This document shows positions 18,813 to 62,196 of a stretch of DNA of 64,000 bases, one piece after another. A program made the translations under genes and the position numbers. The stretch comes from Candidatus Bathyarchaeota archaeon (GTDB lineage Archaea > Thermoproteota > Bathyarchaeia > Bathyarchaeales > Bathycorpusculaceae), in NCBI GenBank assembly GCA_963702095.1, contig OY969706.1, positions 2,368,001 to 2,432,000 on the forward strand, read 5' to 3'. The notes below the pieces were generated by a model. It was not told the origin of the DNA. It made no database searches and saw only the letters and a program-made list of their open reading frames with translations. Each line of letters begins with the position of its first letter. The first letter of the stretch is position 1.

Positions 18813-18945
18813 CAGCTTGCCTAAATCGCCACAACCAATCTACAACTAGGCACAGATGCAGAAACTGAAACGCAATGTTAACCTGAGCCTGTTGGTTGTT
18901 GTTGTGTATAGGGGGTTTTTCCCTACTACTAACAATAGAAAAAAA
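18813..18945 (+). repeat. Dispersed ~130-bp intergenic element, copy A1
   Basis: GCTTG-N10-CACAACCA..CAAC-N11-GCAGA...GTTGTTGTTGTGTATAG...TAGAAAA. Confidence 0.85.
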
Positions 18946-18971
18946 TTGAAGCGGCTTAAGCGGAACTGCAT

Positions 18972-19085
18972 CTGCTTGAGGAAACCGCCACAACCAGCCA
19001 GCAACCCAACCCAGACGCAGATACCAAAAAGCAACCTCCAGATGATGAGCAAGGGCGGAACTCTCTTCTTCTAATACTAGAAAAA
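18972..19085 (+). repeat. Dispersed element, copy A2 (internally shortened, tandem with A1)
   Basis: GCTTG-N10-CACAACCAGCCAGCAAC-N11-GCAGA...GATGATGAG...CTTCTTCT...TAGAAAAA. Confidence 0.85.
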
Positions 19086-19199
19086 TGGAAAACAGGTTGC
19101 TGCTTAATCTTAGGCTACACCAAAATTATTAATTCCACCGCTGATACTTCTCTGACTATACCCCTAATCTAGTCGCAAGTCCAATGGAGATGCAACAGT

Positions 19200-20444
19200 T
19201 TGGTACATCAAGAATGCATAAACTGCAAAACCGCCTACGACATAGATGAGATACTGTATTTCTGCAGAAAATGCGGAGACATCCTAGAAGTCAAGTTTGA
19301 ACATGGCGAGTTAGCCGAAGCTGCCAAAGCAAGCGACTGGAAAACCAAGCCGCTCTCTGTTTGGCGGTACCGCCCGTTTATGCCCATCCATGAATCCACA
19401 AAACTCGTAACCCTCGGCGAAGGCGGCACTGGACTACACCGCTCGGAACGCCTGGGCAACGAGTTAGGCATCAAAAGCCTCTACATCAAAAACGAGGGCG
19501 AAAACCCCACAGGCAGCTTCAAAGACCGAGGCATGACAGTGGGCGTCACCAAAGCCGTCGAACTCGGCGCACGCCACGTAATCTGTGCATCCACAGGCAA
19601 CACCAGCGCAGCCCTCGCCGCATACGCCGCCAGAGCAGGCATCCGCTGCACAGTCCTCATCCCATCAGGCAAAATCGCCTACGGCAAACTCAGCCAAGCC
19701 ATGATCCACGGCGCCAAAGTGCTGCAAGTCAAAGGCAACTTCGACGAAGCACTGGAATTCGTGCTTAAACTCGCCGAGAAACACAAAGACATTTACCTGC
19801 TTAACTCAATCAACCCCTTCCGAATCGAAGGGCAGAAATCGTTGGGCTATGAAATCTGTGAACAACTAAACAACGAAGCCCCTGATCGTATCGTCATCCC
19901 CGTGGGCAACGCGGGCAACATCAGCGCCGTCTGGAAAGGTCTCAAAGAATTCAAGGAACTGGGATTAATCAATAAACTGCCCAAAATGACCGGCATCCAA
20001 GCCGCAGGCTCCGCACCCATCGCACAAGCCATCAAAGCGGGCAGCGACAAAATCACCCCAGTGGAAAACCCCGAAACCATAGCCACAGCCATCCGCATAG
20101 GCGCACCTGTAAGCTGGAAAAAAGCCGTCCACGCCATCCGCGAATCCCAAGGCACAGCCGAAACCGTAACCGACGACGAAATCCTCGATGCACAGAAGAC
20201 GTTGGCGAGGGTTGAGGGCATCTTTGTGGAGCCCGCTTCAGCTTCATCCATTGCTGGCCTCAAGAAGCTAATCCACAAAGGCATCATAATGGCAGATGAA
20301 AAAGTTGTCTGCATCACTACGGGTCACGGCTTAAAAGACCCAGATACAGCGATTAAGCAAAGCGAGAAACCCATCGAAGTTGACGCTGAAATAGGGGCGA
20401 TTGAAGCTGCCCTGGGCTTAAAACAGGCAATCCTTGCACGGTGA
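19200..20444 (+). CDS. thrC: Threonine synthase
   Basis: ENPTGSFKDRG, ASTGNTS, PVGNAGN, TGHGLKD. Confidence 0.95.
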   Translation: MVHQECINCKTAYDIDEILYFCRKCGDILEVKFEHGELAEAAKASDWKTKPLSVWRYRPFMPIHESTKLVTLGEGGTGLHRSERLGNELGIKSLYIKNEGENPTGSFKDRGMTVGVTKAVELGARHVICASTGNTSAALAAYAARAGIRCTVLIPSGKIAYGKLSQAMIHGAKVLQVKGNFDEALEFVLKLAEKHKDIYLLNSINPFRIEGQKSLGYEICEQLNNEAPDRIVIPVGNAGNISAVWKGLKEFKELGLINKLPKMTGIQAAGSAPIAQAIKAGSDKITPVENPETIATAIRIGAPVSWKKAVHAIRESQGTAETVTDDEILDAQKTLARVEGIFVEPASASSIAGLKKLIHKGIIMADEKVVCITTGHGLKDPDTAIKQSEKPIEVDAEIGAIEAALGLKQAILAR

Positions 20445-20451
20445 ATTATCG

Positions 20452-21482
20452 ATGAGAATTATACTTGTGGGATACGGCGTTGTCGGTAAAGGTGTATCGA
20501 CGATTCTGGCTAAGCGGACAGTCGAGAAAGGCAAAGACTACGGGTTTAACCCCAAAATCGTCGCCATCGCAGACATCGACGGCGCAGTCATCAACCCCCG
20601 GGGGTTTAGCCCTGAGAAGCTCGAGGCGATAAAGCAGAAGGGGTACCCGATTTCTGGTGACCCAGAATATGGGCATAAAGGCATTAAGGCACTTGACGTG
20701 ATTGAATCCGTTGAAGCCGAAGTCGTCGTCGAAGTCACCCCGGTCAACATCCAAACCGCAGAGCCTGCGCTTTCGCATATCACAACAGCTTTCAAAACAG
20801 GCAAACACGTCGTTACAACCAACAAAGGCCCCTCGCCCTTGCCATGCCAGCCCTCACAGAACTCGCCGAGTACAACAACGTGTATTTCCGTTTCAGCGGC
20901 ACAGTCGGCGGCGGCACCCCCATGCTGGAATTCGCCAAACGCTGCCTAGCAGGCGACCGCATCCTCGGAGTCAAAGGCATCCTAAACGGCACCACCAACT
21001 ACATCCTCACTGAGATGGGGCAGAACCGCGTCACCTTCCAAGACGCCCTCTCAAACGCCCAGAAACTCGGCTACGCGGAAAGGGAACCATCCATGGACAT
21101 CGACGGCTTCGACACCGCATGCAAAACCGTCATCTTAGCAAACTGGATACTTAACCAGAAAATCACTCTAAAAGATGTGGACCGCGTGGGCATCCGCGGC
21201 GTCACCTTAGACAGGCTTGACGAAGCCGCAAAACGGGGCAACACTGTCAAACTCATCGGCGCCTTAGACGGCACCAGCAAACCAGTTGTGAAACCTACGG
21301 AAATCCCCAAAACCAATCCGCTCTGCGTCAGCGGAGTTTTAAACGCCGTCACCTACCAATGTGAATTCGCCGCTGAACAAACCATCATCGGCAGAGGCGC
21401 AGGCTCAATAGAGACGGCTGGCGCTGTTTTGAGGGACCTCTTAGACATAAGACATAAGTTAGCAACTAAACTACTAACGTAG
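20452..21482 (+). CDS. hom: Homoserine dehydrogenase, one-base frameshift near 20830
   Basis: GYGVVG, HVVTTNKGP / TVGGGTP, GILNGTTNYIL, GRGAG split over two frames. Confidence 0.92.
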
Positions 21483-21501
21483 ACGAAAAGTGATTTGAGC
21501 C

Positions 21502-22911
21502 ATGAAAATCGTGATGAAGTTCGGTGGAACCAGTGTTGGCACAGGCGACAGCATCCGCCACGTAGCCGAGTTAGTTACCCAATACGCCAAAAAAAACAAC
21601 AGCGTAGCAGTAGTTGTTTCTGCGTTGGCAGGCGTCACTAACGAGTTAATCGAGACAGGGTGCAAAGCAAAAAAAAGCGATGAGAAACACATCCAAGCAT
21701 TCACCGCCAACCTCCTAAAGAAACACAAAGAAGCCATTGCAACCGCCATAACTAGCAAAACCATTCAAAAAGAAGTCACAGAAAACACGGAGAAAACCAT
21801 CGCTGAACTCGAAAAAGTCTTAACAGGCATCTGCTACGTCGGCGAACTCACACCTAAAAGCAAAGACTACGTGATGTCTTTTGGCGAACGCCTCTCTGCG
21901 CCGATTGTTTCAGGAGCCATAAGAGACCAAGAGGCAAAAAGCCAATTCTTCACAGGCAAAGACGCAGGCATCGTGACTGACAGCAACTTCGGCGACGCAG
22001 ACCCACTTATGAATTACACCACGCATTTAATCCGCGAACGGCTTGGACCAATAATGGAGGGTGGAGTCATCCCAGTTGTCACAGGCTTCATAGCTGCAAA
22101 CCAAGACGGAGTAGTCACCACCGTCGGACGCGGAGGCTCAGACTACACCGCCACTATCCTGGGCGTAGCGTTGCAAGCCGACGAAGTTTGGATTTGGACA
22201 GACGTGGACGGCATAATGACCACTGACCCCAAACTGGTGCCAGCCGCCCGCATGCTACCGCAACTCAGTTATCAGGAAGCCGCGGAAATGGCGATTTTCG
22301 GAGCCAAAGCCATGCATCCCCGTGCACTCGGACCCGTAAGCAAAGCCAACATTCCAGTGAGAATCCGCAGCACCGCCAACCCCCAAAACACGGGCACACT
22401 CATCACTAAAGAACCAGCGCAAAACCAAAACAAACCAGTCAAAGCAGTCGCCATGATAAAAGACGTAGCCATGCTAAACGTGTACGGAGCCGCCATGGTC
22501 GGTGCACCGGGCAGCTATGCCAGAGTCTTCGATGTTTTGGGCAAAAACGGCATCAACGTCATGATGCTGTCTGCAGCCGCGTCAGAAGCCAACATTTCAA
22601 TGATAATCAAACGTGGACTGCTGGGCAGAGCCATCAGCAACCTTGAAATCGCCTTGCAAGAGCGCGGCGGCATCGTAAGCGAAGTTTCCGCCGAAGACGA
22701 CGTCGCAGTCATCGCAGTTATGGGCGCCTATATGAAGGGCACCTTGGGTGTAGCCTCAAAAATCTTTGAGACAGTTGCCAAGAAAAGCATAAACATCCGC
22801 ATGATTGCACAGGGTAGTTCAGAACTCAACATCAGTTTCGTCGTGAAAGAGAAAGACGGGCAAGCTGTTGTCCGAGCGATTCATGAAGAATTCAACTTAG
22901 ACAAAGCTTGA
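21502..22911 (+). CDS. lysC: Aspartate kinase
   Basis: MKFGGTS, GRGGSDYTA, DVDG, two C-terminal ACT domains. Confidence 0.95.
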   Translation: MKIVMKFGGTSVGTGDSIRHVAELVTQYAKKNNSVAVVVSALAGVTNELIETGCKAKKSDEKHIQAFTANLLKKHKEAIATAITSKTIQKEVTENTEKTIAELEKVLTGICYVGELTPKSKDYVMSFGERLSAPIVSGAIRDQEAKSQFFTGKDAGIVTDSNFGDADPLMNYTTHLIRERLGPIMEGGVIPVVTGFIAANQDGVVTTVGRGGSDYTATILGVALQADEVWIWTDVDGIMTTDPKLVPAARMLPQLSYQEAAEMAIFGAKAMHPRALGPVSKANIPVRIRSTANPQNTGTLITKEPAQNQNKPVKAVAMIKDVAMLNVYGAAMVGAPGSYARVFDVLGKNGINVMMLSAAASEANISMIIKRGLLGRAISNLEIALQERGGIVSEVSAEDDVAVIAVMGAYMKGTLGVASKIFETVAKKSINIRMIAQGSSELNISFVVKEKDGQAVVRAIHEEFNLDKA

Positions 22912-23013
22912 AGTAAATACTGAGATAAAAAGCCCTAAACTTTTTGTTCTAATTTTCTATTTTGCAGTTTTGAAAAAGAAAAAAGGAAAGGGGATTTTGT
23001 TGCGGTTGCTTTT

Positions 23014-25736
23014 TTAGTGTTTTCTTAGCACTAGCACGCCGACTATGGCAATTGCAATTACGATGATGATTACGCCGATTGCCATGTAGGTTATCAGGTC
23101 AGTGGTTGTTGCTACGCCAGGGGCGGTGTCGTTGAGGGACCAGAAGTGGCAGCTGCTTCGCTTGCAGTGAAGTGTCCTATAGCAGACGACGGCCAATACG
23201 AGTTAGAACCTGCAAAGCTGGCAACAACTTCGAAGTCGCCTGAAATGTCGGGGGTCCATGTGAAAGAGTATGTTCCGTCGACTGAAGTGGTTTGGCCGAT
23301 TTGGCGGTAGTTGCCGTTGCTGTCTACGACGCTGATAATGACTGGAACGCCAGAGGTGTTGCTTGGCAGTGGTTGTTGCTCATAGACGTATTCCATCCAG
23401 AGGCTCTGACTCTCGTCTGAGACACAGGGTAAGCCATTTGGGAACCGTAATGCGACTTCGTTTTGCTTTGTCATTGTTACATCAGGTTGCACTAATGCTC
23501 GTGTGCCAGGAGACACATCCGTTATGGTGCCAGTAATGCTGATTGATGTGGCAGTTGTGACTCCGACACTGGGCGCTGAAATAGTCATAGCAGTGGGTCC
23601 TTTGCCAAAAGCGTACAGCATGTTGTCGTAGGCGTTTAGTGACAGAATGATGCCATATGCGATCGATGTTGAGGTGACTGATGTATCCAGTATCTTCCAT
23701 CCTAGTGAGCCGTCAGTCCAGTTGAGAGCCAGTAGTTGCGCTCCGTGGAATAGCGGCGGGTTGTATTCGTGGCCTACAGTGACATATGCAAAGTCATTGT
23801 CTGCGCATTGACTGCTGAAAACCCATAAGGGCCAAATTGCGTATGGAGTTTCCAAACCGGGGTTGCCTAGAATATCGTTTGTAGTTGTCAGCCATTTTAC
23901 GTTTCCGTTTGCTGTGTCTATACACCAGACTTCTCCGCCGAAGCCTATTAGTGCAATGCTGGCGTTGGGTCCGTTTAAGCTTCTGAGGCCGAATACTGTG
24001 TAGCCGTGTGGAAGATCACCATTTGCATCTCGTAGCTCTTGTGACCAAGCGTGGTTGCCAGTGCGTGCATCAAGTGCGTATACGTCAGCAAATGCCAAGT
24101 TCGCCAGTAAAACCTTGCCGTCCTGTATGTATAAGTTAACTCTTGAGTCTGTGGCTAATGTGTCAGTTTCTGAAGCGGTTACGTTGCGAGCCCATAGTTG
24201 AGCGCCTGTTGTGGCGTCCATTGCACCTATGACTAGCCAGCCGTTCATTTGTCCGCCGAAGCCCTGTCCGAAAGTATAGCCTGCGGTCATTACAACTGCG
24301 TTGTCGGTTATGCCGTTTATTGCCATAACTGGGTTTCCTGAAGCGCCTGTGTTGATGGTGTATCCTCCGGTACTTGTGACGTTGGGTAGGGGTGCAGTCC
24401 ACATGACGCCTGTTTGCCAATCACGAACCGTGTTTCTTGCTGGTTGCCAAGAGCCACCGGTTTGTCCGATAGCCATTGTCATGTTCCAGCATGTCAAGTG
24501 TGGTCCTGTGCTTGTGGTCATGACAGTTTGCCCTGGGACTGGATATGTGGGTTCTGTGCCAGAAGTAGCGTTGATGTAGTAGCCGATTATATCTCCTTGG
24601 TCGTCAGTGGTAAGTGCGGGGGTGGTACCGTTAACGATGCTGAGCATGTATTGTCCAGTTAATCCTTGGTACATGTTCCATTGTACAAATCGATCTGATG
24701 TGCCCATTATACCCAATGTGCCACTAAAGCCATTACTATTGTTGGGTATAGTTCCACCAGTGTCTGCTGCGGGGAGGGTGCCTGTCGTCCAGATGAATGG
24801 ACCGATAACACCGTATTGGTTGATTTGGTGGTATTGTGTATTCATGCCGCATCTCAATGGATTGGTTGTGTTTATGGTCCATAGTGTTTGTCCAGTGTAT
24901 ATGTCAACAGCTTGAATGCCTTGTCCCATGTTAGTTCCCATTGTTGTGGGGAACCACTGAGAATACATGATGCCATTCATTATGACGGGTGCATATTTCG
25001 GTTGGTACTGCGAAGTTGACCAGTAGTTGCTGCTTTCAGTTCCACCTGCGTCTCCTCCAGCTACACCGCCTGAAGCCCAAATCTTTGTCCAGAGGACATG
25101 TCCAGACATTACTGATTGAGTGTAGGGGTTGTAGTTGCCAGTGTAGTTGTAGCCACCTGTTGTTGCGAAAGTAACTGAGCCATAGCCAAGCCATGGTCCA
25201 GTTATTTTATACCAGTTTTGAACGTTTTCAGCGGTAACTGGAGTTTGCCAATATTCTGTCGGGAGTGGAGTAACTGCATAGTAGCCCAGCTGTATGGGTT
25301 CTTCCTGTACTGTAACCACTACTGTGTTACTTGTAGCCGCTAATGCGATGACGCCGTTGGTTAAGGTTTGTTGTCCGAAGTAAGCTACGAATGTATAGTT
25401 TCCTGTAGTTTCCGGAACTATAGTAGTGTACGAGCCTCCGGTAGCATCCGATCTGAACGGTCCGAGGGTGACTTGGGTGCCGTCTGGTTTTGTTTCAACG
25501 ACTGTCCAGTTAGTCGCACTTTCGCTTGTTAACAGCGGTGCGGCGATGAAGAAGTTGAGTGTCAATGTTTGACCGACGCCGATTGGGTTGGGTCCAGCAT
25601 TTATGAAAGCATAGATTGTTTGTGTTTGTCCTGGTGATTTTGGAACCTGACTGTTGATAGGTAGAATAGGGATTGCAATCGATAGGATTAAAAGTAAAGT
25701 AATTGTTGTTGCAAATAGACTTTTCAAAAATTTCAT
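23014..25736 (-). CDS. Large secreted PQQ-like beta-propeller protein; C-terminal TM anchor separated by a frameshift near 23125
   Basis: Signal peptide; repeated (A)xD(A)xTGxxxW motifs; TM segment ITYMAIGVIIIVIAIAIVGVLVLRKH in the adjacent frame. Confidence 0.8.
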
Positions 25737-25944
25737 TTCTTCTTTGTTCCTTTATTTTATAGGCGAAAAGCTTTCTAAAAGTTAGCGTTTCGCCATGTGT
25801 TGATTAAAAAAGATATCGTATTTATATTTTTCCATATACCAAGGTACCGTCAAGGTAAAAAGCGACAGCTAAACTAAAAGTACATAAAAAGCATGGGTAT
25901 CACCCGTGTGTTTATCGCTGGTTAAACCACTAAGAGGTTTGGGT

Positions 25945-26316
25945 TTATAGAAGGAAAGGAAGTTCTTTGTTTCCTTCTCTTTCCTGTTGCCAACCGCTGT
26001 CTTTGCCCACTCGCAGCCTGATTCTGGAGACAAGTGTTGATAGTTTACCGGCGCCGGGTTGATAACCGTATTTTGTTTTTAACATCAGAATAGCTATTGT
26101 CTGCACGAACACCACTGAATTGGATGACACCAGTGGCATGTTAGTGACCAAGACACCGTAGGCTAGCCATAGCACGACAGAGGTGCACATGATGCCACAC
26201 ATCAAAGTGGAGATGTCTTTACCTGATTTTGTTCTCCAGACTCTTATTAGCTGCGGAAGCAAAGAAATAGTGCTTAAGGCAGCAGCTACTAAACCTATCA
26301 TGGTTATAATTTCCAT
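25945..26316 (-). CDS. SemiSWEET/PQ-loop family transporter
   Basis: LPQLIRVWRTKSGKDIS, LWLAYG, PLVSSN; start placed at MEIITMIG. Confidence 0.85.
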   Translation of the reverse strand: MEIITMIGLVAAALSTISLLPQLIRVWRTKSGKDISTLMCGIMCTSVVLWLAYGVLVTNMPLVSSNSVVFVQTIAILMLKTKYGYQPGAGKLSTLVSRIRLRVGKDSGWQQEREGNKELPFLL

Positions 26317-26537
26317 GTTTTTCCCTCTCTCCAAGTTCTCCACTAAATGAATGCATGTCTTATTTAACTTTCGATTTTTTAGACTAAAATACCTACAAAA
26401 AAGTATTAAACGAGAATTAATATGATTGGAATTGAATACGGTAAAATGACTAGTTATCAAAAGTTATTAGGCGTGGAACTCAAAGCACGGCTACTCGATC
26501 TTCGGCGCTTTATCGGTAGATGAAAAATCTGCCTGAA

Positions 26538-26665
26538 CTGCTTGTAGTTTGTTCCAAACCAGCCAGCAACCAGTTTCCGATGCAGAACACAAAACACAGC
26601 CGCCTATACAATCCACAGGAAGAAGAAGAGTAAGGAGCACTCTGCCTTCATCTAACAATAGAAAA
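26538..26665 (+). repeat. Dispersed element, copy B
   Basis: GCTTG-N10-CAAACCAGCCAGCAAC-N11-GCAGA..CAGCCGCC..GAAGAAGAAGAGTAA...CTTCATCT..TAGAAAA. Confidence 0.85.
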
Positions 26666-26734
26666 CAAAAAAGCCCAAAAATTGATCCAATGTTATACAG
26701 GGGGAGGGAGACTTCGGCAGAGCAGCAACAGAAA

Positions 26735-27883
26735 CTAACCCGTCGAGTCCCAATAATAAACCGCCGCACTATACTCCTCCGGAACCGGAAAAGATGGATC
26801 TGCGTAGGCTATGTCCAAAGCGTAACCATACTGGCTCAGCATGGATTCAACACTGCTCCAAACCATCGGCGACACCTCGTCTGGACCCCAGAAACCCCAA
26901 ATCTTATCCTCGGGGTAACGTAACCCGTAACCGTAGTTTTGGGGCAGAACCAAGACGGCTTGTGCAGGGCTGTCGCGGGCGATTTTGCCGGTTGTTATAT
27001 CGGTCCAGAGTTTTTTAAGCGCTTCAAAATGCTCGTCTTCCATGATTCCGTAGGCGCTGCCGTTATAGGGATAGTTGAAGATGGAGATGTATTTGGCTCC
27101 AGCCCGATAAGCGGAGACCATCTGGCTGTAGATTAGGTCGCCGCTTTCCAATTCGGCTGTAGAAGGGCTTTTCCAAGTGACTATGGCACCCCAGTCTTTA
27201 TGCTGAAACGTTGCGGCACCGCGGACTAAGGCGATGTCTTTTGCGGTTGTGTGGTTCCAGCCTAACTCTGCGAAGACGACATCGTAGCCTGAGCGGTAGT
27301 CAAACCAGTAAAGCCCATAGTCAGAGCAGAACATGGGAATGCCTTCATTCTTGAGCAAAATAGTGCCTCCGTCCTGCAACATTTTGCTTTCAAATTCTGC
27401 TGCCACAGAATCGTAGGTTGCATTAGAAGGCAGGGACGGCCAAGCAGTTTTGTCACTGTCAAGGTAGATTCCGCCTCGCTCGTCATAGTAGTACACGCCC
27501 AAGAAATGGTCGCCGTAGGCTTGTTTTGCGTTGCTTACCCATGTGGCACGCCAAGTGAGGTTTTTCTGCGCCAATATGGGTGGGGCGAGGTCGCCGAAGT
27601 AAACGATAATGCTTTGTCCCGAGTTGACGGCGTAGTCGCAGATTTCAGTTGTCGCGGACTCATTGGTGCTGATGGGTCCGGATTGGAGGATAAAGAGGTT
27701 AGTGTAGGCTTTGGTGCGGTCAATGAGCTGTTTTGCCTGCTCCGCGGTGTCTCCGCCGAATGCCGCTCCAACGTAGCATGGGCTGCTTTTGCTGCCGGTA
27801 AGCGATAACTGTTCAAACACTAAAACGCCTACTAAAACAGCTAAGAGCAAAACCGAAAAGCCGATGATCACATGTTTTTTCAA
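26735..27883 (-). CDS. Membrane-anchored/secreted hypothetical protein, possibly glycoside-hydrolase-like fold
   Basis: N-terminal TM helix; GVYYYDE.GG, DYGLYWFDY motifs; aromatic-rich. Confidence 0.7.
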   Translation of the reverse strand: MKKHVIIGFSVLLLAVLVGVLVFEQLSLTGSKSSPCYVGAAFGGDTAEQAKQLIDRTKAYTNLFILQSGPISTNESATTEICDYAVNSGQSIIVYFGDLAPPILAQKNLTWRATWVSNAKQAYGDHFLGVYYYDERGGIYLDSDKTAWPSLPSNATYDSVAAEFESKMLQDGGTILLKNEGIPMFCSDYGLYWFDYRSGYDVVFAELGWNHTTAKDIALVRGAATFQHKDWGAIVTWKSPSTAELESGDLIYSQMVSAYRAGAKYISIFNYPYNGSAYGIMEDEHFEALKKLWTDITTGKIARDSPAQAVLVLPQNYGYGLRYPEDKIWGFWGPDEVSPMVWSSVESMLSQYGYALDIAYADPSFPVPEEYSAAVYYWDSTG

Positions 27884-27940
27884 TGCTCTGTCTCCTAGCC
27901 GTGGCTGTTTTTTGTTATAGATTAATATTGAACTCCACGT

Positions 27941-29032: not shown

Positions 29033-29128
29033 CGATTTAACTTCCGCTGTTAGGCTTTTTGGTTTAATTGATTACGCTATTAGATAACGGTTCCTGTTTT
29101 CTGACGCTAAACACGGCTTGTTTGACTT

Positions 29129-33474: not shown

Positions 33475-33621
33475 TTTAGCCCTCCTCAGGTAAGTCCTAT
33501 GTTGTTGTCTTATTTTGGGCGGAGACTATTGTATTTACCGCTGGTATAGCCGAAAAAACGCTTTTAGAAAACAAGAGGTAGAATGGGGAAAGAGGGGTTG
33601 GAATAAAAAACTGGTTCGGGT

Positions 33622-33753
33622 CTGCTTGCGGCTTATTGCACAACCAGCCTGCAAACGCCAAAACCAGCCAAACCCAAAACACAGCCGCCCACACAGCCCA
33701 CTGGTTGTTGTTGTGTATAGGCGGTTTCCGCCAACAACAACTATAGAGTAAAA
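33622..33753 (+). repeat. Dispersed element, copy C
   Basis: GCTTG-N10-CACAACCAGCCTGCAA..CAGCCGCC..GTTGTTGTTGTGTATAGGCGGTTTCCGCCAACAACAACTATAG. Confidence 0.88.
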
Positions 33754-33835
33754 CAGTACACAGCACTTTAACATGTTTTCTAGGCATAGCAGATATAAGG
33801 AACCCCACCAAATATTTCGGCACAGAAGTGTCAGT

Positions 33836-43671: not shown

Positions 43672-43678
43672 GGCAACT

Positions 43679-46053: not shown

Positions 46054-46100
46054 CCTGCTGAGACCTCCCTCTCCCATCATCAACTTGGCAGTTTCCTGTT

Positions 46101-46227
46101 CTGCTTGAAGATTACGCCACAACCAACAAGCAACTCACAGCAATTGCAGAAACAAAAAAACAGCCGCCTGCCAAACTCACAGGAAGAAGAGTAAAGGGGA
46201 CTCTGCCTTCTTCTTAAACTAGAAAAA
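46101..46227 (+). repeat. Dispersed element, copy D
   Basis: GCTTG-N10-CACAACCAACAAGCAAC-N11-GCAGA..CAGCCGCC..GAAGAAGAGTAA...CTTCTTCT..TAGAAAAA. Confidence 0.87.
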
Positions 46228-46236
46228 CAAAACTGA

Positions 46237-48357: not shown

Positions 48358-48387
48358 CACTAACATAACAGAGGAGAGAAAACAGAA

Positions 48388-52565: not shown

Positions 52566-52769
52566 CCTTTTCCCTGTCTTTCCTAATATTTCTCAAAGAT
52601 CAACCGTAGCTGTGCAATCAGGCTAGAATTTTGAGCTAATTTAGAGGAAAAGCTTTTCTGATTAAACCACGATTCAAAATGTCACAAGCAGTACCTCTGC
52701 ATGCAAATACTAAACTGAAATGGGGTAAAAAAGACGGCAGCAAATATAGAGTTAATCATTGCTGTTTTC

Positions 52770-54299: not shown

Positions 54300-54462
54300 T
54301 AGGGCACCGCTGGTTTGTTGATGCTTAGCACTTTTAGGTGTTCAGTGTTCGAACGCTTTGAACCAGCTAAAGTATTTACTTTGTTCAAGGCATAACTTAC
54401 AAGGTTCCGCCGAATCCCGATACAATAAAAACTGGAGAAAACAGACCATTGTGCTAAAGGCA

Positions 54463-54777
54463 ATGAAGGATAATTTTGTTTCCAGCATAAAAGAGCGGGA
54501 ACTAGCCGAAGGCAAAATGCGTGCCGTGCGTGTCAAACATGAGCCTGTTTTGCTGGCAAGGGTAGGCGGCGCCGTATTCGGTGTCTCTAACCGTTGTCCA
54601 CACATGGGCTGTGAATTACAGGGTGGCATCCTTAACGGCTACATTCTGATGTGCCCCTGTCACGGCTGGAAATTCGACGTCCGTAACGGGCAATACACCG
54701 AAAATCCCTTAACCGCCCTGACCACCTACAAGTGCAAAGTAGAAGATGGACACGTCTGGGTTGAAATCAAAAAGTAA
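54463..54777 (+). CDS. Rieske [2Fe-2S] ferredoxin
   Basis: CPHMG...CPCHGWKFD. Confidence 0.9.
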   Translation: MKDNFVSSIKERELAEGKMRAVRVKHEPVLLARVGGAVFGVSNRCPHMGCELQGGILNGYILMCPCHGWKFDVRNGQYTENPLTALTTYKCKVEDGHVWVEIKK

Positions 54778-54780
54778 GCG

Positions 54781-54939
54781 CTATTCGCCTCGTGTGTCGT
54801 TGCGGTTGCATTCTGCTTTGGGTCGGTACTCCACTTTTTTGGTGCGGGCTTTGTGGTGCATTTCGCATTCTTTGATTCGGACAAGCATCCATTCGGTTTC
54901 TTCGTAGACGCATCCGCAGAGCAGTGTTTTTGTTGGCAT
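54781..54939 (-). CDS. 52-aa microprotein with CGC...C..H motif
   Basis: MPTKTLLCGCVYEETEWMLVRIKECEMHHKARTKKVEYRPKAECNRNDTRGE*; converges 3 nt from the Rieske stop; host-like codon usage. Confidence 0.55.
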   Translation of the reverse strand: MPTKTLLCGCVYEETEWMLVRIKECEMHHKARTKKVEYRPKAECNRNDTRGE

Positions 54940-55117
54940 GATATTGGATACCTATACGTTCATGGTTGCGTGGTTTGATAAGGGTTTCGAAATTGCACCG
55001 TTAAACTTGATTTGAAGAAAAAAGCCTGTAATGGGTAGATTTGGTTTTTCGGTGGCTAAGTAGGGCAAGGTTTTAGAGGAGGGTACGCTACTTTGATTCC
55101 ATCTATAGGTGCACTGT

Positions 55118-55243
55118 ATGCCTAACATGAAAAAGAAAAACATCAACACCCGCAAAGAACAAGAAAAGAAGGCTCTGCGGGAAAAAGAAGCAAAAAAGAA
55201 AGAATTGCATTCAAATCTTCCGCAGAAAGGAAAGAAAAAATAG
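55118..55243 (+). CDS. 41-aa Lys-rich basic microprotein
   Basis: MPNMKKKNINTRKEQEKKALREKEAKKKELHSNLPQKGKKK*; followed by a T-rich tract. Confidence 0.4.
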   Translation: MPNMKKKNINTRKEQEKKALREKEAKKKELHSNLPQKGKKK

Positions 55244-55554
55244 CTGCTTCGGGATTACTGTTTACTTGATTTTCTTCCTCTTTCGTATTTTCTATCTTGG
55301 ATGCGCTTTCCCCTTGTGTTTTTTACATTTTGTTTAACGTTTTTCCGTTTTTATGAAGGAATGTTAATATAAACCTTCTTTTTACTCTACAAACGCTAAG
55401 CCAAACCCGGAAGTTGCGAATAAATGATTCCGCCTAATCCCCAAATTACCAAACCAGAATTGAAGCACACAACCATGCAACTCACTAAACATACCACTTA
55501 CATTTCAGAATTTACCTCAAAATATGGCTTCTACTCTTTAGGCGGCAAAAGTTA

Positions 55555-57221
55555 ATGTGTGGAATAGTCGGAATCTTTAACATTTCAGAGCCAATCCCTC
55601 AGGCAAGGGACAAAGCACTTCGGATGGCAGCTAAAATCAGGCACAGAGGCCCAGATTGGAGCGGCATCTACAACGACGACAAAGCCATCCTCGCCCACGA
55701 AAGACTCTCTATTGTTGACGTGGAACATGGCGCCCAACCCTTATTCGACAAGTTAAACGGCAACGCGTTAGCTGTGAACGGGGAAATCTACAACCACATT
55801 GCTCTGCGCAGCAAACTTGGAAAGGAGCATCTGTGGCAGACTAAATCGGACTGTGAATGTATTCTCTACCTCTATGACGAATATGGCGCGGACTGCCTTG
55901 ACATGTTAAACGGCATGTTCGCATTCGTGCTCTACGACAAAGCCAAAGGCATCTTCTTTGTAGCTCGCGACCACATAGGCATCATCCCACTCTACGCTGG
56001 CTGGGACGACAGGGGCACCCTCTACGTTGCCAGCGAAATGAAAGCGCTAAACGATTACTGCACAATCATCAAAGAGTTTCCCCCCGGACATTACTTGCTG
56101 GGCAACGGCAGCGAAGACTTCACAAAATGGTACAAGCCCAAATGGGCAGAAGAAATCCCGACCAAGAAACTTGAGCTCACCGAACTCCAGGAAGCACTGG
56201 AGAAATCCGTGAAGGGCGAAATGATGTCTGATGTTCCCTACGGTGTATTGATTTCGGGGGGGTTGGATTCGTCGTTGATTGCATCTATTGCTTCGAAGTA
56301 CCGCAAGAAACGGGTTGAATCCGGCGACCAAGAGGAAGCGTGGTGGCCCAGACTGCATTCGTTTGCTGTTGGCTTGGCTGATTCCCCCGATTTGAAGTAC
56401 GCAAAGAAGGTTGCAGAATACATCGGAACTGTTCACCATGAAATCATATTCACCATACAGGAAGGCTTCGACGCAATAAAAGACGTCATCTACCACCTTG
56501 AAACCTTCGACGTCACCACCATCCGTGCGGCGACGCCTATGTATCTGATGGCACGCAAAATCAAGTCCATGGGCATCAAAATGGTGCTCAGCGGCGAAGG
56601 CGCAGACGAAGTCTTCGGCGGCTACCTGTACTTCCACAAAGCCCCCAACAAACAGGAATTCTACGAGGAAACCGTGCGCAAACTCCAGATGCTAAGCAAA
56701 TACGATTGCCTGCGTGCCAACAAAGCCACCGCCGCCTGGGGTGTGGAAACTCGTGTGCCCTTTTTGGATAGGAGTTCTTGGATTTCGCCATTGGTTTTGA
56801 TCCCGAAGAGAAAATGTGCAGCGGTGACAGGATAGAGAAGTATGTGCTGCGCAAAGCGTTTGAAGGCTACATTCCTGAGGAGATTTTGTGGCGGCAGAAA
56901 GAGCAGTTCAGCGACGGTGTCGGCTACGGCTGGATAGACTACCTCAAACGCCATGCCCAAAGCACGGTCACCGACGAAATGATGAAAAAAGCCAAAACAA
57001 AGTTCCCAGTGCAGACCCCGTCCTCTAAAGAAGAATACTATTACCGCCAAATATTCGACAGTTACTTTTCCTGTCCGTCGGCGGCGTTGACGGTTCCTGT
57101 GGGTCCGACGATTGCCTGTTCGACTCCGACGGCTTTTCGCTGGAGTGAGGAGTTCAAGAAGATGGCTGATCCCTCTGGCAGGTCGGTTAAGGTGCATGAG
57201 CACGCTAAACAAGGTAGCTAG
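55555..57221 (+). CDS. asnB: Glutamine-hydrolysing asparagine synthase B, one-base frameshift near 56770
   Basis: MCGIVG, HRGPDW, SGGLDSS, SGEGADE, RVPFLD / RQKEQFSDGVG. Confidence 0.93.
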
Positions 57222-57258
57222 GTTTGTTGTTCTGGGTGTTTCTGCCCTTTTTTCTGTG

Positions 57259-57389
57259 TTTTTTCTATAGTTGTTGTTGGCAAAAACCTTCTATACACAA
57301 CAACAACCAGCAGGCTGTGCTGCTGATTGCTTTTTGGCGTCTGCGTCTTTGGTGCGTTGCAGGCTGGTTGTGGCTTATTCCGCAAGCGG
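57259..57389 (-). repeat. Dispersed element, copy E
   Basis: Reverse complement: GCTTG-N10-CACAACCAGCCTGCAAC-N11-GCAGA...GTTGTTGTTGTGTATAGAAGGTTTTTGCCAACAACAACTATAGAAAA. Confidence 0.88.
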
Positions 57390-57398
57390 AACAAGGCG

Positions 57399-57797
57399 CT
57401 ATAAACCTACAACTTTTAACTCTTTAACCCTGCCAAAATGAGCATCACACGTAACCATACAATCCACTTTCTCAGCCAACGCCGTCGCCGCATGCAACGC
57501 ATCCCTCGGCGCCAAATGCAACTCCCTAATCAACCCCAGAGCAGACAACGCCAACTCCCTCGTGGCATCGATGATTTCAAGGTTGGGAAAATTCAGCATC
57601 GCCTCCGCAGTCTCCAGCGCCTTCTCCAACCCCCTATTCCGCTTAACCTCCCAGAAAACCTCATCAAAAGTCAAAGCTGACGTAACTGCCTTATCCTCGC
57701 CCGACTGGATTTTAGCCAGCAGAGCCACCGCTTTAGGGCCCTCCTTATCGGTGTTTAAGGCGGCAAAAATAAAGATGTTAGCGTCCAGATAAAGCAC
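57399..57797 (-). CDS. vapC: PIN-domain toxin (VapC family)
   Basis: YLDANIF, TFDEV, PRDALHAATA, TCDAHF. Confidence 0.92.
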   Translation of the reverse strand: MLYLDANIFIFAALNTDKEGPKAVALLAKIQSGEDKAVTSALTFDEVFWEVKRNRGLEKALETAEAMLNFPNLEIIDATRELALSALGLIRELHLAPRDALHAATALAEKVDCMVTCDAHFGRVKELKVVGL

Positions 57798-58041
57798 GTT
57801 TGAATCTCTCGTCTAGTTCTTCTTCGTAAGCATGCGGGTCTACATAGGGAACAGATTTGCCGCTATTGGCGACTCTCTTGAAAACTGCGACAGCATCAAA
57901 AGCTGGCTTCTCCAACACCGCCCTATTGTCCTCCAAGGTTATCTGCACTTTCATGCCCGGCTCGATTTTAAGCGCCTTACGAATAGCCCGCGGGATAACA
58001 ACTTGCCCTTTGGGACCGACTTTCATTTCTTCCCGAATCAA
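57778..58041 (-). CDS. AbrB/MazE-type antitoxin
   Basis: KVGPKGQVVIPRAIRKALKI.PG. Confidence 0.9.
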   Translation of the reverse strand: MIREEMKVGPKGQVVIPRAIRKALKIEPGMKVQITLEDNRAVLEKPAFDAVAVFKRVANSGKSVPYVDPHAYEEELDERFKRALSGR

Positions 58042-58042
58042 A

Positions 58043-58088
58043 GTATAACCACAAGTTATACAAAAGTATAACCATCACTTATACTTTT
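58043..58088. promoter_or_regulatory. Tandem palindromic operators of the AbrB-VapC module
   Basis: Two GTATAA-N7-TTATAC inverted repeats 23 bp apart; the second extends to AAAAGTATAA-N7-TTATACTTTT. Confidence 0.75.
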
Positions 58089-58188
58089 CATGGAGAGAAA
58101 TACCAAAATCACATGGTTTTCTCATGTTTAAGCCAGTTACGGTTTTATATGCAACCAATAGCATAAGACTGCAAAAGAGAGAATCCTC

Positions 58189-59631
58189 ATGTCCGATACT
58201 GGTGTCACCGTCAAGAAAAACGTAGACTTCAGCGAATGGTACGTCGAAGTAGTGTTGAAAGCTGAGTTAGCTGATTACGCGCCTGTGAAGGGCTGCATGA
58301 TTATCCGCCCAGACGCCTATGCGGTTTGGGAGAAAATCCAAGAGGTTGTTAACCAAAAAATTAAAGCGACGGGGCATCGAAACGCCTATTTCCCCATGTT
58401 TATCCCAGAAGGGTTCCTCAAAAAAGAAGCAGAGCACTTTGAAGGGTTCACTCCGGAAGTTGCGTGGATCACTCAGGGCGGCAACACGCCACTAGAGGAG
58501 AAACTTGCTGTTCGCCCCACCAGCGAAACCATCATGTACAGCATGTACGCCAAGTGGATACGCAGTTGGCGCGATCTGCCCCTGAAAATCAACCAGTGGT
58601 GCAACATCGTCCGCTGGGAAACCAAAGCGACGAAGCTGTTTTTGCGTACCCGCGAGTTCCTCTGGCAGGAAGGACACACTGCGCATGCCACCGCTGAAGA
58701 AGGCGAAACCGAAGTCCAATGGGCACTCAACATGTACAAAGACATCGTCGAAAACTACCTTGCCATCCCAGTTGTCCTTGGCACCAAGAGTGAGAGCGAA
58801 AAATTCGCCGGCGCCCTCTACACCACAGCGCTCGAATCCATCATGCCTGATGGTAAAGCCTTGCAGATGGGCACCAGCCACAATTTGGGACAGCACTTCG
58901 CCAAGGTCTTTGACGTGAAATACATCGGTGAAGACAAGGCTGACCACTACGTGTGGCAGACCAGTTGGGGCATCACTACGCGGCTCATCGGCGCCATGAT
59001 TATGGTGCACGGCGACGACAAGGGCTTGATTATGCCGCCTAAAGTTGCGCCTGTGCAGGTGGTCATCGTGCCGATTCCATTCAAGGGACTGGAGGCAGAG
59101 GCGATTGCCGCTAAAACCAAGCAAATCCAAACCGACCTCCAAGGCAGAGGCATCAGCGTAGTCCTCGACGACCGCAGTGAATACACTCCGGGCTGGAAGT
59201 TTAACCAGTGGGAACTCAAAGGCATCCCGCTACGCGTTGAAGTTGGACCCCGAGACATCAAGAACGGCCAGGTAGTTATGGTGCGGCGGGACACTGGTCA
59301 AAAAGCATTCGTTAAAGATGCCGACATACTTGCCACTGCCGAGAAACTGCTCACCGACATCCAAGACAGCATGCTTGCTAAAGCCAGAGCCATCCTCGCA
59401 GACAAAACCACACTCGTCAAGAGCTACGACGAATTCAAACAGGTGCTTGAAGCCAAAGGCGGCTTCCTCAAAGCACCTTGGTGCGGCAACCCAGAGTGCG
59501 AAGCAAAAATCAAAGACGAAACAGGCGCAACCATCCGCGTCATACCCTTCCAGAAAGAGGCTCCTACTTCGGGCTGCGTGTTCTGCGGCAAAGAAGCAAA
59601 AGACGTTGCATACTTTGCTAGGTCATATTAG
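58189..59631 (+). CDS. proS: Proline-tRNA ligase (archaeal/eukaryotic type)
   Basis: RPTSET, RTREFLWQEGHT, QMGTSH, C-terminal FARSY. Confidence 0.97.
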   Translation: MSDTGVTVKKNVDFSEWYVEVVLKAELADYAPVKGCMIIRPDAYAVWEKIQEVVNQKIKATGHRNAYFPMFIPEGFLKKEAEHFEGFTPEVAWITQGGNTPLEEKLAVRPTSETIMYSMYAKWIRSWRDLPLKINQWCNIVRWETKATKLFLRTREFLWQEGHTAHATAEEGETEVQWALNMYKDIVENYLAIPVVLGTKSESEKFAGALYTTALESIMPDGKALQMGTSHNLGQHFAKVFDVKYIGEDKADHYVWQTSWGITTRLIGAMIMVHGDDKGLIMPPKVAPVQVVIVPIPFKGLEAEAIAAKTKQIQTDLQGRGISVVLDDRSEYTPGWKFNQWELKGIPLRVEVGPRDIKNGQVVMVRRDTGQKAFVKDADILATAEKLLTDIQDSMLAKARAILADKTTLVKSYDEFKQVLEAKGGFLKAPWCGNPECEAKIKDETGATIRVIPFQKEAPTSGCVFCGKEAKDVAYFARSY

Positions 59632-59779
59632 ACCTAACCAAACCCTTTTTTCACTTATTTTTTGAACAATCGGCTTTTGCAAGCCCATATTTGGGGTGCA
59701 AGCGTTTGTTTTGGGGCGGTTGCTGTGGGGAACGTTTATTTTTTGGGTCAGCAAGAGTTGTTGGGTACAGGTAAGGCAA

Positions 59780-61017
59780 TTGTCAGGCATCAAAGTAACT
59801 AAGCGTGCAAGCAGCATCGAATATGCCATTCGCGATGTCATAGTCCACACTAAAGACCTGATTAAGAATGGCAAAAAAATCTACTATCTAAACATCGGTG
59901 ACCCTGCCGCATTCGACTTTAAAACTCCGCCCAGCCTCAAAGAAGCTCTCTGCAACGCCATCGCCCAAGAAGACAACTATTACTCCCCCTCAGAAGGGTT
60001 GCCAGAACTGCGGCAAGCAGTCGCCAACAAGGAGAAGAAAGTTAACGACGTCGACATCACAGCCGACGACGTGCTGGTCACTGAGGGCATCTCGGAAGGC
60101 ATCCAGATGCTACTCGGAGCCATCGTGGAGAGGGGCGACGAAATCCTCTTCCCAGGCCCACTTACCCCCCATACATCAGCTACACTAACTTTTTCGAGGG
60201 CAAACCAGTCAGCTACGAAACCATAGAAGCAGAAGGCTGGCAACCCAACATCGACGACCTACGCAAAAAAGTCACCGATAAAACACGTGCCATAGTCATA
60301 ATCAACCCCAACAACCCCACCGGCGCAGTCTACGACCGAAAAACCATCAAAGAAATCCTCGACATCGCAGGCGAACACAACCTCCCAGTTATCAGCGACG
60401 AAATCTACGACCAACTCACCTACGAAAAACAGTTCGTCAGCGCAGCAAACGTAACCAAAGACGTCCCCGTCATCGGCTTAAACGGGTTCAGCAAAGTTTA
60501 CCAGATGACCGGCTGGCGCTTAGGCTACATGTACTTTAAAGGCGAAGGTAAACAACTTGACGCGCTCAAAGATGGCGTGGAGAAGGAATGCAGAATCCGC
60601 ATCTGCGCAAACACTCCAGTCCAAATCGCTGCGACCGCAGCGCTAAACGGTCCACAGGACTTCGTCAAAGACATCGTCGAGCGACTCCGCGAAAGGCGGG
60701 ATTTCAGCCACAAACGCCTAAACGAACTCGAAGGCATATCCACCACTAAACCCGAGGGCGCCTTCTACATCTTCCCCAAAATCGAAGGCATAGGCAAACG
60801 TTGGAGAAGCGACATGGACTTCGTTGTGGAACTGCTCAAAGAAACAGGCGTTTTAATCGTCAATGGCAGCGGCTTCGACCCAGTGTATGGCAAAGACCAC
60901 GCTAGAATTGTGTTTTTGCCGCCTGTCGACGAGTTAGAGCAAGCCTACAGCGCGTTGGAAGGCTTCATGAAAAAGAAGGTTAGAAAGGACAGCCGCGGCC
61001 ATGTTGGCTACGGCTAA
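59780..61017 (+). CDS. Class I/II PLP aminotransferase (AlaA-like), one-base frameshift near 60160
   Basis: EYAIRD, LNIGDP; IINPNNPTG, SDEIY, NGFSKVYQMTGWRLG in the second frame. Confidence 0.88.
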
Positions 61018-61022
61018 AAACC

Positions 61023-61907
61023 TTAGATTTTTGTTCCGCTGGCTGGGTCTTCGATTACTTTTTGGAACTCAGCCATTAACCGTTTGGTGACGGGTCCAGG
61101 TTTACCGTTGCCGATGACACGCCTGTTTACCTCGCGAATTGGCACCATCTCCATGGCTGTGCCTGTGAAGAAGGCTTCGTCAGCTGTGAAGACCATGAAG
61201 GGCGTTAGGTTTGTGGCGGTGAGTTTGACGTCGAGTTTCTGGCAGAGTTGGGCGACGACTTCTGCGGTGATGCCTGCTAATGCGCCTGTGCTGGTCGGGG
61301 GGGTGAGGAGTTCGCCGCCTTTGACGATGAATATGTTTTCGCCGACGCCTTCAGCTATGCAGCCGCTTGGTTCAAGGCAGATGGCTTCGTCGACTCCGTT
61401 TGCATTGGCTTCAATTTTTGCTAGGACACTGTTGAGGTAGTTGAGTGATTTTATCTCGTGGGTTGTGGCGTCCACGGGGTTTCGTCTGACCCAGCTGAAC
61501 ATGGTGGTTATGCCGACTTCTTTGGCGTTGCCTGCTTTGATGTTGATGGTGTCAGCGATGATTATGATGGTGGGGTTGGGGCATTTGCGGGGGTCTAAGC
61601 CTAAGTCGCCGACGCCTCTTGAGACGATGAGGCGTATGTAGCTGTCTTTCATGTTGTTCTTGCGTAGGGTTTCAACTACGGCTTGGACCATTTCTTCTTT
61701 AGAGAGGGGGATGTTTAGCATTATGGCGTGTGCACTGCGGTAGAGGCGGTCAACGTGCTCTTTGAGTTTGAAGACGACGCCGTTGTAAGCGCGGATTCCT
61801 TCGAACACGCCGTCGCCGTAGAGGAACCCGTGGTCATAGACGCTGATTTTTGCTTCCGACTTCGGATAGTATTTGCCGTCTATGTAGATTTGCAGTTCAC
61901 TGGTCAT
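61023..61907 (-). CDS. ilvE: Branched-chain amino acid aminotransferase
   Basis: LYGDGVFEGIR, IKSLNY, EGVGENIF, LAGIT, TGTA. Confidence 0.95.
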   Translation of the reverse strand: MTSELQIYIDGKYYPKSEAKISVYDHGFLYGDGVFEGIRAYNGVVFKLKEHVDRLYRSAHAIMLNIPLSKEEMVQAVVETLRKNNMKDSYIRLIVSRGVGDLGLDPRKCPNPTIIIIADTINIKAGNAKEVGITTMFSWVRRNPVDATTHEIKSLNYLNSVLAKIEANANGVDEAICLEPSGCIAEGVGENIFIVKGGELLTPPTSTGALAGITAEVVAQLCQKLDVKLTATNLTPFMVFTADEAFFTGTAMEMVPIREVNRRVIGNGKPGPVTKRLMAEFQKVIEDPASGTKI

Positions 61908-62066
61908 TTGTCAATTACTCCTTGGATGGCTGTTTCATATTGTCCAAACGTAGTTATAGGTTGCCACCGTGATACATATGATTCGTATAGAGTGTATTTA
62001 TTAATTATGAAGCTGTCGATGTCCTGTCCCTAAATTTTAGGGGTTTATGGTGTTGCCCTGATTTGC

Positions 62067-62196
62067 TTTTTCTAGATTAAGAAGAAGAAAGTATCGCCCT
62101 TACACATCATCTTCTTGGGGACTTTGTGGGCGGCTGCTTTTTTGGTTCTATGTTTGGTTTTGGTTGCAGATTGATTGTGCAATCCACCACAAGCTT
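62067..62196 (-). repeat. Dispersed element, copy F
   Basis: Reverse complement: GCTTG-N10-CACAATCAATCTGCAAC..CAGCCGCC..GAAGATGATGTGTAA...CTTCTTCTT..TAGAAAAA. Confidence 0.85.

Follow-up and report, generated by a model that had tools for sequence, protein, structure and literature searches.

A ~140-bp intergenic repeat family of one Bathy-6 genus of Bathyarchaeia, probably mobile and without a recognised mobilising enzyme, marks the breakpoints of chromosomal inversions

The REP/BIME sequences of proteobacteria are mobilised by RAYT, a Y1 transposase of the IS200/IS605 type, and the prokaryotic transposable elements of the miniature inverted-repeat type (MITEs) include the Correia elements of Neisseria, ERIC/IRU of enterobacteria and the SM MITEs of Sulfolobus. 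Insertion sequences (IS) of the IS6/IS26 kind transpose replicatively within one molecule and leave an inverted segment bracketed by two identical inverted copies, so that the product reads A-[E>]-M'-[<E]-C. Bathyarchaeia rank among the most abundant archaea without a cultured member, and closed genomes for them have only begun to appear. Here we describe a repeated element of ~140 bp, seven copies of which lie in a stretch of 64,000 nucleotides (the window) of a Candidatus Bathyarchaeota archaeon (assembly GCA_963702095.1, contig OY969706.1, positions 2368001-2432000). The source genome, G000, has 2,937,366 bases in one contig, and the other G-numbers used below (G001, G007, G014 and so on) are its congeners in a Bathy-6 genus of Bathyarchaeia. 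We put at roughly 60% the probability that the element represents an orphan family of non-autonomous mobile repeats, which is kept by turnover and by exchange between copies and is the main substrate on which inversions in the genus arise.

Like REP/BIME sequences, the element is high-copy, intergenic, hairpin-bearing and clade-specific, lacks terminal inverted repeats (TIRs) and target-site duplications (TSDs), is sometimes tandem or composite, and is a hot spot of rearrangement. However, it consists of three modules over ~140 bp where a REP is a palindrome of 20-40 nt, it is carried by genomes without a Y1 transposase (seven in all, the source genome and the other high-copy congeners), and it has no replication-strand bias, with 66 plus and 54 minus copies on one replichore and 24 and 22 on the other, as delimited by GC skew. 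With the Correia, ERIC/IRU and SM elements it shares a size within 100-250 bp, a non-coding and intergenic nature (181 copies of ~140 bp and no conserved open reading frame, ORF) and a copy number that varies between close relatives, and in both cases copies can hold terminator-like signals and act as recombination substrates; unlike those MITEs, its core has no TIR, no TSD and no parent IS with matching ends. As the family lacks both the MITE hallmarks (TIR, TSD, parent IS) and those of REP/RAYT, we class it as a small dispersed intergenic repeat. The literature that we searched, including passages of PMC11697101 and PMC11602168, yielded no account of the family, and a TIR-based MITE catalogue in the supplements of these papers could list Bathyarchaeia repeats.

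A profile hidden Markov model (HMM) made from the seven window copies was run with nhmmer, and matches were kept at E<=1e-3. It gave 181 matches over the 2.94 Mb of the genome, while 1 Mb of its shuffled sequence had none, which bears out the expectation of the initial annotation that many copies would exist genome-wide. Among these matches, 166 reach 55 bits or more and 154 cover nearly the whole element, and the family makes up 0.8% of the genome. The window itself holds exactly the seven copies that had been claimed, all at the places given, with 97-120 bits each and no eighth, and the blocks said to be shared are visible when the seven stretches are aligned. The copies are spread evenly on both strands, at 0-12 per 100 kb, in contrast to the same-orientation array of integron attC sites.

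The element has five parts, namely H1, H2, a CA-rich linker, H3, and CTAG or ATAG followed by an A-run, and the 166 copies yield the consensus gttCTGCTTG.gGatt.ctCCaCAACCAgCCtGCAAccca...c..a.gCagAa.ccAAAAcacA..cgcC..C.aAgcCC.ctgGaaGatGaTGaGtAagGGcg.ctcTc.CttCatCtaa.A.tagAAAAA. H1 (CTGCTTGnGG-N6-CCnCAACCAG) is a 26-bp palindrome of 10-6-10 design at the 5' end, with nine of ten arm positions complementary, and it is the best-conserved block of the family; H2 (CTGCAAC-N8-10-GTTGCAG) is often imperfect. They correspond to the GCTTG-N10-CACAACCA and the GCAAC-N11-GCAGA of the first description, whose claim of fixed spacing holds: CTGCTTG and TAGAAA lie 121-123 nt apart in 84 of 108 anchored copies, with length slips in the copies at 26534, 18968 and 46097. 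The spacers were also said to be variable and they do differ in sequence, but they do not vary freely, being the loops of the two palindromes with a few recurring variants. The linker between H2 and H3 contains an invariant AAAA. H3 exists in a GAA type (arms GAAGA(A/T)GA.. and ..TCTTCTTC; 102 of the 166 copies) and a GTT type (arms GTTGTTGTTG and CAACAACAAC; 61 copies), each with a 5' bulge and a GC inner stem, and because both occur in other species of the genus the two versions must be old. H3 ends 8-10 nt before the A-run, which is five or longer in 108 of 119 copies, and a slightly T-rich 5' flank mirrors this A-rich 3' tail.

A minority of copies continue into a 3' extension, M2, of the form AAATTTTGATCCAC.GTTATA..GGGGAGGGG..GGCAGAGCA(G)CAACAG. 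An HMM of M2 has 27 matches in the genome, and 14 of the strongest 16 adjoin an element; the outer motif of M2 stands after 15 of 161 copies, whereas among 2004 control gap strands it was seen on 31. Some copies have an inverted M2 upstream as well, which gives them long imperfect inverted flanks, and ten carry it on both sides when judged by a loose motif. M2 flanks some elements as an outward-facing inverted pair of variable spacing. The features of the window are as follows, G007 being the closest relative of the source genome, with genes ~87% identical to those of G000.

18809..18953, plus strand: element copy that opens a tandem pair, 3' hairpin of the GTT type (nhmmer, 112 bits; no counterpart at the matching place in collinear G007)
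18968..19097, plus strand: element copy that closes the tandem pair, hairpin of the GAA/GAT type (nhmmer; 16-nt internal deletion before the hairpin)
26534..26675, plus strand: element copy in antisense to the minus-strand genes on either side, hairpin of the GAA type (nhmmer; absent from the orthologous G007 gap)
26675..26743, plus strand: optional 3' extension M2, AAATTGATCCA..TTATA..GGGGGAGGG..GGCAGAGCAGCAACAG, abutting the stop codon of the convergent gene 26735..27883 (minus strand)
33618..33762, plus strand: element copy between divergent genes, hairpin of the GTT type (nhmmer; conserved at the orthologous G007 site with 87% identity)
33622..33647, plus strand: module H1 of copy 33618, the 10-6-10 palindrome CTGCTTGCGG-CTTATT-GCACAACCAG, read directly from the sequence
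33703..33741, plus strand: module H3 of copy 33618, with outer stem GTTGTTGTT/AACAACAAC, 5' bulge (G)TGTATA and inner stem GGCGG/CCGCC
46097..46236, plus strand: element copy with a GAA-type hairpin that has a 3-nt stem deletion, in a convergent gene gap (nhmmer)
57258..57394, minus strand: element copy with a GTT-type hairpin (nhmmer, 120 bits)
62060..62200, minus strand: element copy in the sense of the minus-strand genes on either side, hairpin of the GAA/GAT type (nhmmer, 113 bits)

In copy 33618, H3 is followed by CTATAG and then by the A-rich tail. Copy 26534 has a 1-nt deletion inside CACAACCA, and a weak inverted copy of the inner part of M2 stands just upstream of it (~26500-26530). 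Tandem same-strand pairs always have the GTT-type copy first and the GAA-type copy 160-230 bp downstream; besides 18809-19097 in the window they were seen at G000:C1:1430483/1430688, 2462493/2462287 and 474681/474481, and M2 lies between both copies in two of the pairs.

A single Bathy-6 genus is the only group in which the family was found. A covariance model built on sequence alone from 47 copies, and run on 24 congeners and on 16 genomes of other genera of the same order, detected it in 14 of the former and in none of the latter. Some species carry an expanded set of ~75-180 or more copies, and in others the family is missing or survives as decaying relics: next to the source genome, G007 and G014 have at least 76 copies each, G005 has 73, G024 34, G015 25 and G008 21, eight others have 1-3 and ten others, among them G003, G006, G012, G013, G017 and G019, have none. 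The copies of the low-copy genomes are weak and visibly degenerate, at 21-70 bits. A pattern scan of species-representative genomes agrees with a Bathyarchaeia host, as 35 of the 80 loci listed are true elements, all in records of Bathyarchaeia/Bathyarchaeota or of an uncultured archaeon, and the 45 loci with bacterial titles are chance matches; none of 43 pattern matches in viral contigs is a real element. In metagenome contigs, elements are present at 41 of 41 loci, from relatives whose flanks are 66-89% identical to G000, and since the flanks are only that similar, these loci provided no strain-level empty sites.

Element sites are gained and lost between species. We took 42 element loci of G007 and placed their flanks in G000, with both flanks placed for 41 element sites. 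Twelve of these have an element at the orthologous G000 site and five are collinear but empty in G000. In the other direction, the window copies at 18809 and 26534 have no counterpart in the collinear region of G007. Moreover, G001 and G011 have copies at sites that are empty in G000, and G016 is without the 132123 copy. The initial annotation had left three alternatives for the element (a multi-site nucleoprotein element for chromosome organisation or recombination, a multicopy non-coding RNA, or an old non-autonomous mobile element). The last of them fits best, given the varying presence among congeners, the filled and empty orthologous sites seen both ways and the decaying relics.

Element copies are preferred breakpoints of chromosomal inversions. 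The remaining 24 of the 41 G007 sites are synteny breaks with respect to G000, 18 of them strand-inverted, and both junctions lie within ~330 nt of a G000 element in ten of the 24 and one junction in eight more. Element-free intergenic gaps of at least 40 nt at the same loci were broken in 2 of 37 cases (nine gaps could not be placed), so that 24/17 stands against 2/35 (Fisher odds ratio ~25, p=5e-7), and arbitrary split points inside the flanks were broken in 4 of 74. For metagenome contigs with both flanks placed, the flanks map apart in G000 in 20 of 22, a figure that has no control at that distance. The family accounts for the inversion sites, for the strong differences in gene order between species at ~87% nucleotide identity and for the many-contig assemblies in the genus. 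Its profile offers a means of masking or annotating these repeats in Bathy-6 genomes and of spotting misassemblies there.

Copies also exchange sequence blocks, and the family evolves in concert. The identity between copies has a mean of 61%, with a median of 78% to the nearest neighbour, and some columns are nearly invariant. Between G000 and G007, 14 orthologous pairs are identical at 0.915 of the family-conserved, 0.709 of the intermediate and 0.504 of the variable columns, and the values for non-orthologous pairs are 0.897, 0.572 and 0.397; therefore, many positionally orthologous copies had parts replaced. In fact, orthologous copies of the two genomes are block-wise mosaics with middle or hairpin segments replaced. 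Copy 2498336 is identical in both through H1 and at the 3' end and unrelated between, copy 46097 of the window (78% identity) is alike in the 5' half and different in the hairpin region, and the G007 gap that matches 18968 has an element on that side which is of the GTT type and only 59% identical, indicating a mosaic or replaced copy. A single copy common to G016 and G020 is split in G000, where its 5' flank and first bases go with 133160 and everything from H1 on, 3' flank included, goes with 2689196; this split amounts to a reciprocal exchange within the element.

Three-way comparisons at ten inversion junctions placed the switch between partners at H1, in the middle of the element, in H3 or at its 3' end. 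Because the switch points are scattered along the element, exchange is not confined to one core, and it looks like recombination at whichever conserved block offers short homology. This bears on the possibility that the inversions, and perhaps the spread of the family, come from programmed site-specific recombination, with H1 as the core site of an Xer-like or integrase-like tyrosine recombinase. H1 does have the inverted arms around a short spacer that are typical of a dif/Xer-like or invertase site, in a 10-6-10 architecture and in the best-conserved block, inversions dominate the rearrangements, and both the G016 exchange point and the boundary of identity between e13 and e20 fall at H1. 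Tyrosine recombinases are also present in 30 of 31 genomes of the genus, with seven matches in G000, two of them within 100 nt of an element. However, exchange confined to the core was not found, the partner elements at inversion junctions mostly differ in the H1 spacer, and integrase counts do not track elements (34 elements and no match in G024, no element and nine matches in G003), so we hold this explanation to be quite improbable. The earlier suggestion of a recombination site is therefore right in that the copies are substrates of inversion and segment exchange, but not in the sense of a programmed site-specific system, as the crossover points are spread along the element.

Among the copies of G000 there are ten pairs with at least 90% identity; seven of them lie 2.7-57 kb apart, and all seven of these are inverted, which intramolecular replicative transposition would produce. 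The pair 1119579(+)/1128032(-), 100% identical, brackets an 8.4-kb segment that is inverted relative to G007. There, the left junction of the segment has no element and two flanks 2 nt apart, and the right junction has a dissimilar element in a different orientation. This arrangement fits an insertion followed by intramolecular replicative transposition, and equally two insertions with a later inversion by homologous recombination. Compared with G007, the pair 1169659/1183153 shows a plain inversion. The arrangement at 1119579/1128032 is the same as that left by IS6/IS26, and IS240-type DDE genes are present in G000; unlike IS6/IS26, the element has no 8-bp duplication, and the IS240-type genes have no element-like ends and a distribution different from that of the element.

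These comparisons also bear on the idea that the element is not mobile at all and that its copies descend from an ancient intergenic sequence solely through segmental duplication and ectopic homologous recombination. Copies demonstrably recombine with one another often, a duplicated gene cassette of 2.9 kb is bounded by element fragments, and no TSD, TIR or transposase was found for the element, all of which would suit such an origin. Nevertheless, the flanks of near-identical copies are unrelated as far as the very edges of the element, solitary elements occur in orthologous gaps that are collinear in all else, and segmental duplication must be rare, since the genome has only 15 repeat pairs of at least 300 bp. 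For these reasons we consider a purely passive multiplication highly improbable.

For the mobile repeat that we favour, we infer the following mechanism of movement. The element would be selfish mobile DNA whose blocks H1, H2, H3 and CTAG-A5 would be recognised by an enzyme acting in trans. New copies would arise mostly nearby and inverted, the pattern that intramolecular replicative transposition leaves, and the conserved blocks would then serve as short homologies for ectopic recombination that flips the DNA between copies. A bolder version, rather doubtful in our opinion, is that an archaeal transposition or recombination system, unrecognised to date, acts on the element. In this system the 26-bp palindrome and the 3' hairpin would be the recognition sites of a tyrosine recombinase or an unannotated protein, with local inverted copying without target duplication, and it would thereby drive most inversions in this Bathy-6 genus. 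In any case, the persistence of ~180 copies without a recognisable mobilising enzyme makes this genus a concrete place to seek new archaeal transposition or recombination activity.

Several results weigh against a mobile family, the first of them concerning its ends. A scan for TSDs over boundary offsets, with k=4-9 and both boundary definitions, gave counts not above those of permuted pairings, and the empty/filled pairs examined (5+1+2) showed no TSD and no clean insertion boundaries, the latter because the intergenic DNA is too diverged. The 140-bp core has no TIRs, its 5' CTGCTTG.. and 3' ..CTAGAAAAA being unrelated, and no transposase shares ends or distribution with the element. The initial annotation had likewise reported neither TIRs, target duplications nor transposase, and this essentially stands, except that a subset of copies has the long imperfect inverted flanks described above and that the genome encodes two IS240-type DDE proteins whose genes lack element-like ends. 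A weak TIR-like match (TCTGCTTG versus TCTGTTGC) appears only with the M2 end, in ~9% of copies. An IS6-derived MITE was considered in this connection, as the M2 outer end and the 5' end share TCTG..TTG, and it was rejected given that M2 follows only 15 of 161 copies and that there is no TSD.

Equally, none of the usual enzymes follows the element. Y1_Tnp (PF01797) has no match in the seven high-copy genomes G000, G005, G007, G008, G014, G015 and G024; across the genus, 10 of 31 genomes have it, and each of these either showed few or no copies of the element or lay outside the scan for it. Serine recombinases and reverse transcriptases are also missing from the seven high-copy genomes, their totals in the genus being 7 of 31 and 3 of 31, respectively. 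Among the genomes scanned for the element, these three kinds of enzyme occur only where copies are few or none. The element does resemble the PATEs derived from IS200/IS605 in having subterminal hairpins (H1 at the 5' end and H3 near the A-run) and neither TIR nor TSD, but it differs from them in lacking an orientation bias relative to the direction of replication. TnpB, DDE_Tnp_1 and IS110 were not found in G000, and Y2_Tnp had no match there in a search whose control was also without any match. The tyrosine recombinases mentioned above show no relation to copy number, and an integrase link was dropped: two of five located integrase genes adjoin elements, which is not beyond chance, and there is no co-distribution.

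A weak rve match led to the two intact paralogous genes of the IS240 type, at G000:C1:1962820-1963947 and 1161831-1162919 (L320, L321), whose products of 376 and 385 residues have a DDE_Tnp_IS240 domain (58-59 bits, cut-off 27) and an N-terminal zinc finger of the SWIM kind, with 53% identity between the two. The genome has four further IS240-type matches, which are shorter or more distant. The two genes have no recognisable inverted ends and flanks nothing like the element, with another palindrome just upstream of each start. The IS240-type family is missing from G014, G024, G015 and G008, which have from 21 to at least 76 copies of the element, and it is present in the zero-copy genomes G003, G013 and G019. 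No transposase is encoded by the repeats of at least 300 bp that we checked in the self-comparison of the genome, and the two largest hold genes for surface proteins or PQQ proteins. An autonomous parent was also sought through partial matches with only the 5' or only the 3' part of the element; these led to the duplicated 2.9-kb cassette, which is not a transposase. This two-gene cassette occurs at G000:C1:197822-200718 and 988056-990947 (L233, L232) with 87% identity, one copy being broken into shorter ORFs. It encodes a protein of 381 residues with a signal peptide and a C-terminal anchor and a secreted protein of 520 residues, neither with a Pfam match. At its start each cassette copy has positions 1-86 of an element, and a different element stands right behind its end. 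A second repeat of 2.9 kb has a PQQ-repeat protein and a second ORF without a Pfam match.

The remaining difficulties for a mobile origin lie in conservation. In the four best orthologous pairs the family-conserved columns differ by 5.7%, against 25% in the variable columns, some copies have been kept at orthologous sites across deep splits of the genus (G016, G010), and the presence of near-invariant columns despite a mean identity of 61% could also be compatible with selection on a host function. The copies would then be multi-site protein-binding modules selected by the host (for nucleoid organisation, as insulators or terminators, or like origin boxes), with their spread tolerated or favoured. 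In line with this, the blocks are conserved as sequence and not by covariation, which suggests recognition by a protein, and the family-conserved columns stay conserved in orthologues. Furthermore, the 3' A-run is oligo-T on the other strand in 108 of 119 copies, genes converging on the A-run end stop at a median of 53-57 nt from it, and convergent gaps are somewhat over-used (48 of 247, versus 41 of 357 divergent gaps). Oligo-T is an archaeal termination signal. On the other hand, concerted evolution by exchange can by itself keep the family-conserved columns, the copies follow no orientation rule relative to genes, and a host function cannot be general, because 10 of the 24 congeners searched have no element and others have 1-3 degenerate copies. 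On balance, a host-selected site appears unlikely to us.

The position of the copies in relation to genes was counted on crude ORF calls, which elements overlap by a mean of 19%. Among the 166 copies, 48 lie in convergent, 41 in divergent, 46 in tandem same-sense and 31 in tandem antisense gaps, so the occurrence in divergent, convergent and tandem gaps that had been noticed in the window holds genome-wide, and these counts show no orientation rule relative to genes. A coding element was considered as well, as there are long open frames on both strands, and it was discarded: the frames are due to the CA-rich/GT-rich composition, and they have no conserved start codon and no continuation into neighbouring genes.

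The same indifference to gene orientation counts against a multicopy structured RNA, with each copy a small RNA gene or a cis-acting RNA module; a multicopy non-coding RNA was among the early alternatives. The length of the element is tightly fixed, and its 3' hairpin is a genuine fold: H3 has at least ten pairs in 95-96% of copies, with an energy ~5 kcal/mol under that of shuffles (n=80 and n=47), and it is kept through two wholly different stems, GAA/TTC and GTT/AAC. A TATA-like TTATAT, read from the sequence, stands ~30 nt upstream of CTGCTTG in the few copies with an upstream inverted M2. Consistent folding is limited to this hairpin, however. Taken whole, the element folds unremarkably (over 119 copies, z=-1.5 for the given strand and z=-1.2 for its complement), and RNAalifold found almost no structure in the seven window copies. 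Mutual information, with a signal dominated by the two hairpin types, revealed no Watson-Crick covariation within H1 and H2, where it is the sequence of the arms that is conserved. In addition, chimeric hairpins with mismatched arms exist (a GTT 5' arm with a TTC 3' arm), there is no conserved promoter or terminator, and Rfam has no match in the window at gathering scores and none on any element in ten loci at E<=5. All these data do not favour the RNA proposal, to which we assign a low probability.

Some minor observations concern the neighbourhood of particular copies. At L047:1638-1665 and L050:1639-1665 (G016 and G020) and at G000:C1:~2689330-2689351, the element is followed by what resembles a tRNA 3' half, with T-arm, acceptor and CCA lying on the opposite strand. 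ARAGORN called no tRNA at it, and the sequence may represent a split tRNA gene or an old integration scar. Two Orc1/Cdc6 genes of the source genome, at G000:C1:835530-836717 and 2779792-2781174, coincide with the minimum (~830 kb) and the maximum (~2.77 Mb) of the cumulative GC skew. The 647-bp gap 2781174-2781821 next to the second gene contains an AT-rich stretch with outward-facing boxes GACTGGAAAC..GGGG on either side, and for this reason it is a candidate replication origin. M2 (..GATCCACTG-TTATA-GGGGAGGGG..GGCAGAGCAACAG) is loosely like these candidate origin boxes, with TC.ACTG, a few bases and a G-string, and a copy of the element lies within ~1 kb of each Orc1/Cdc6 gene.

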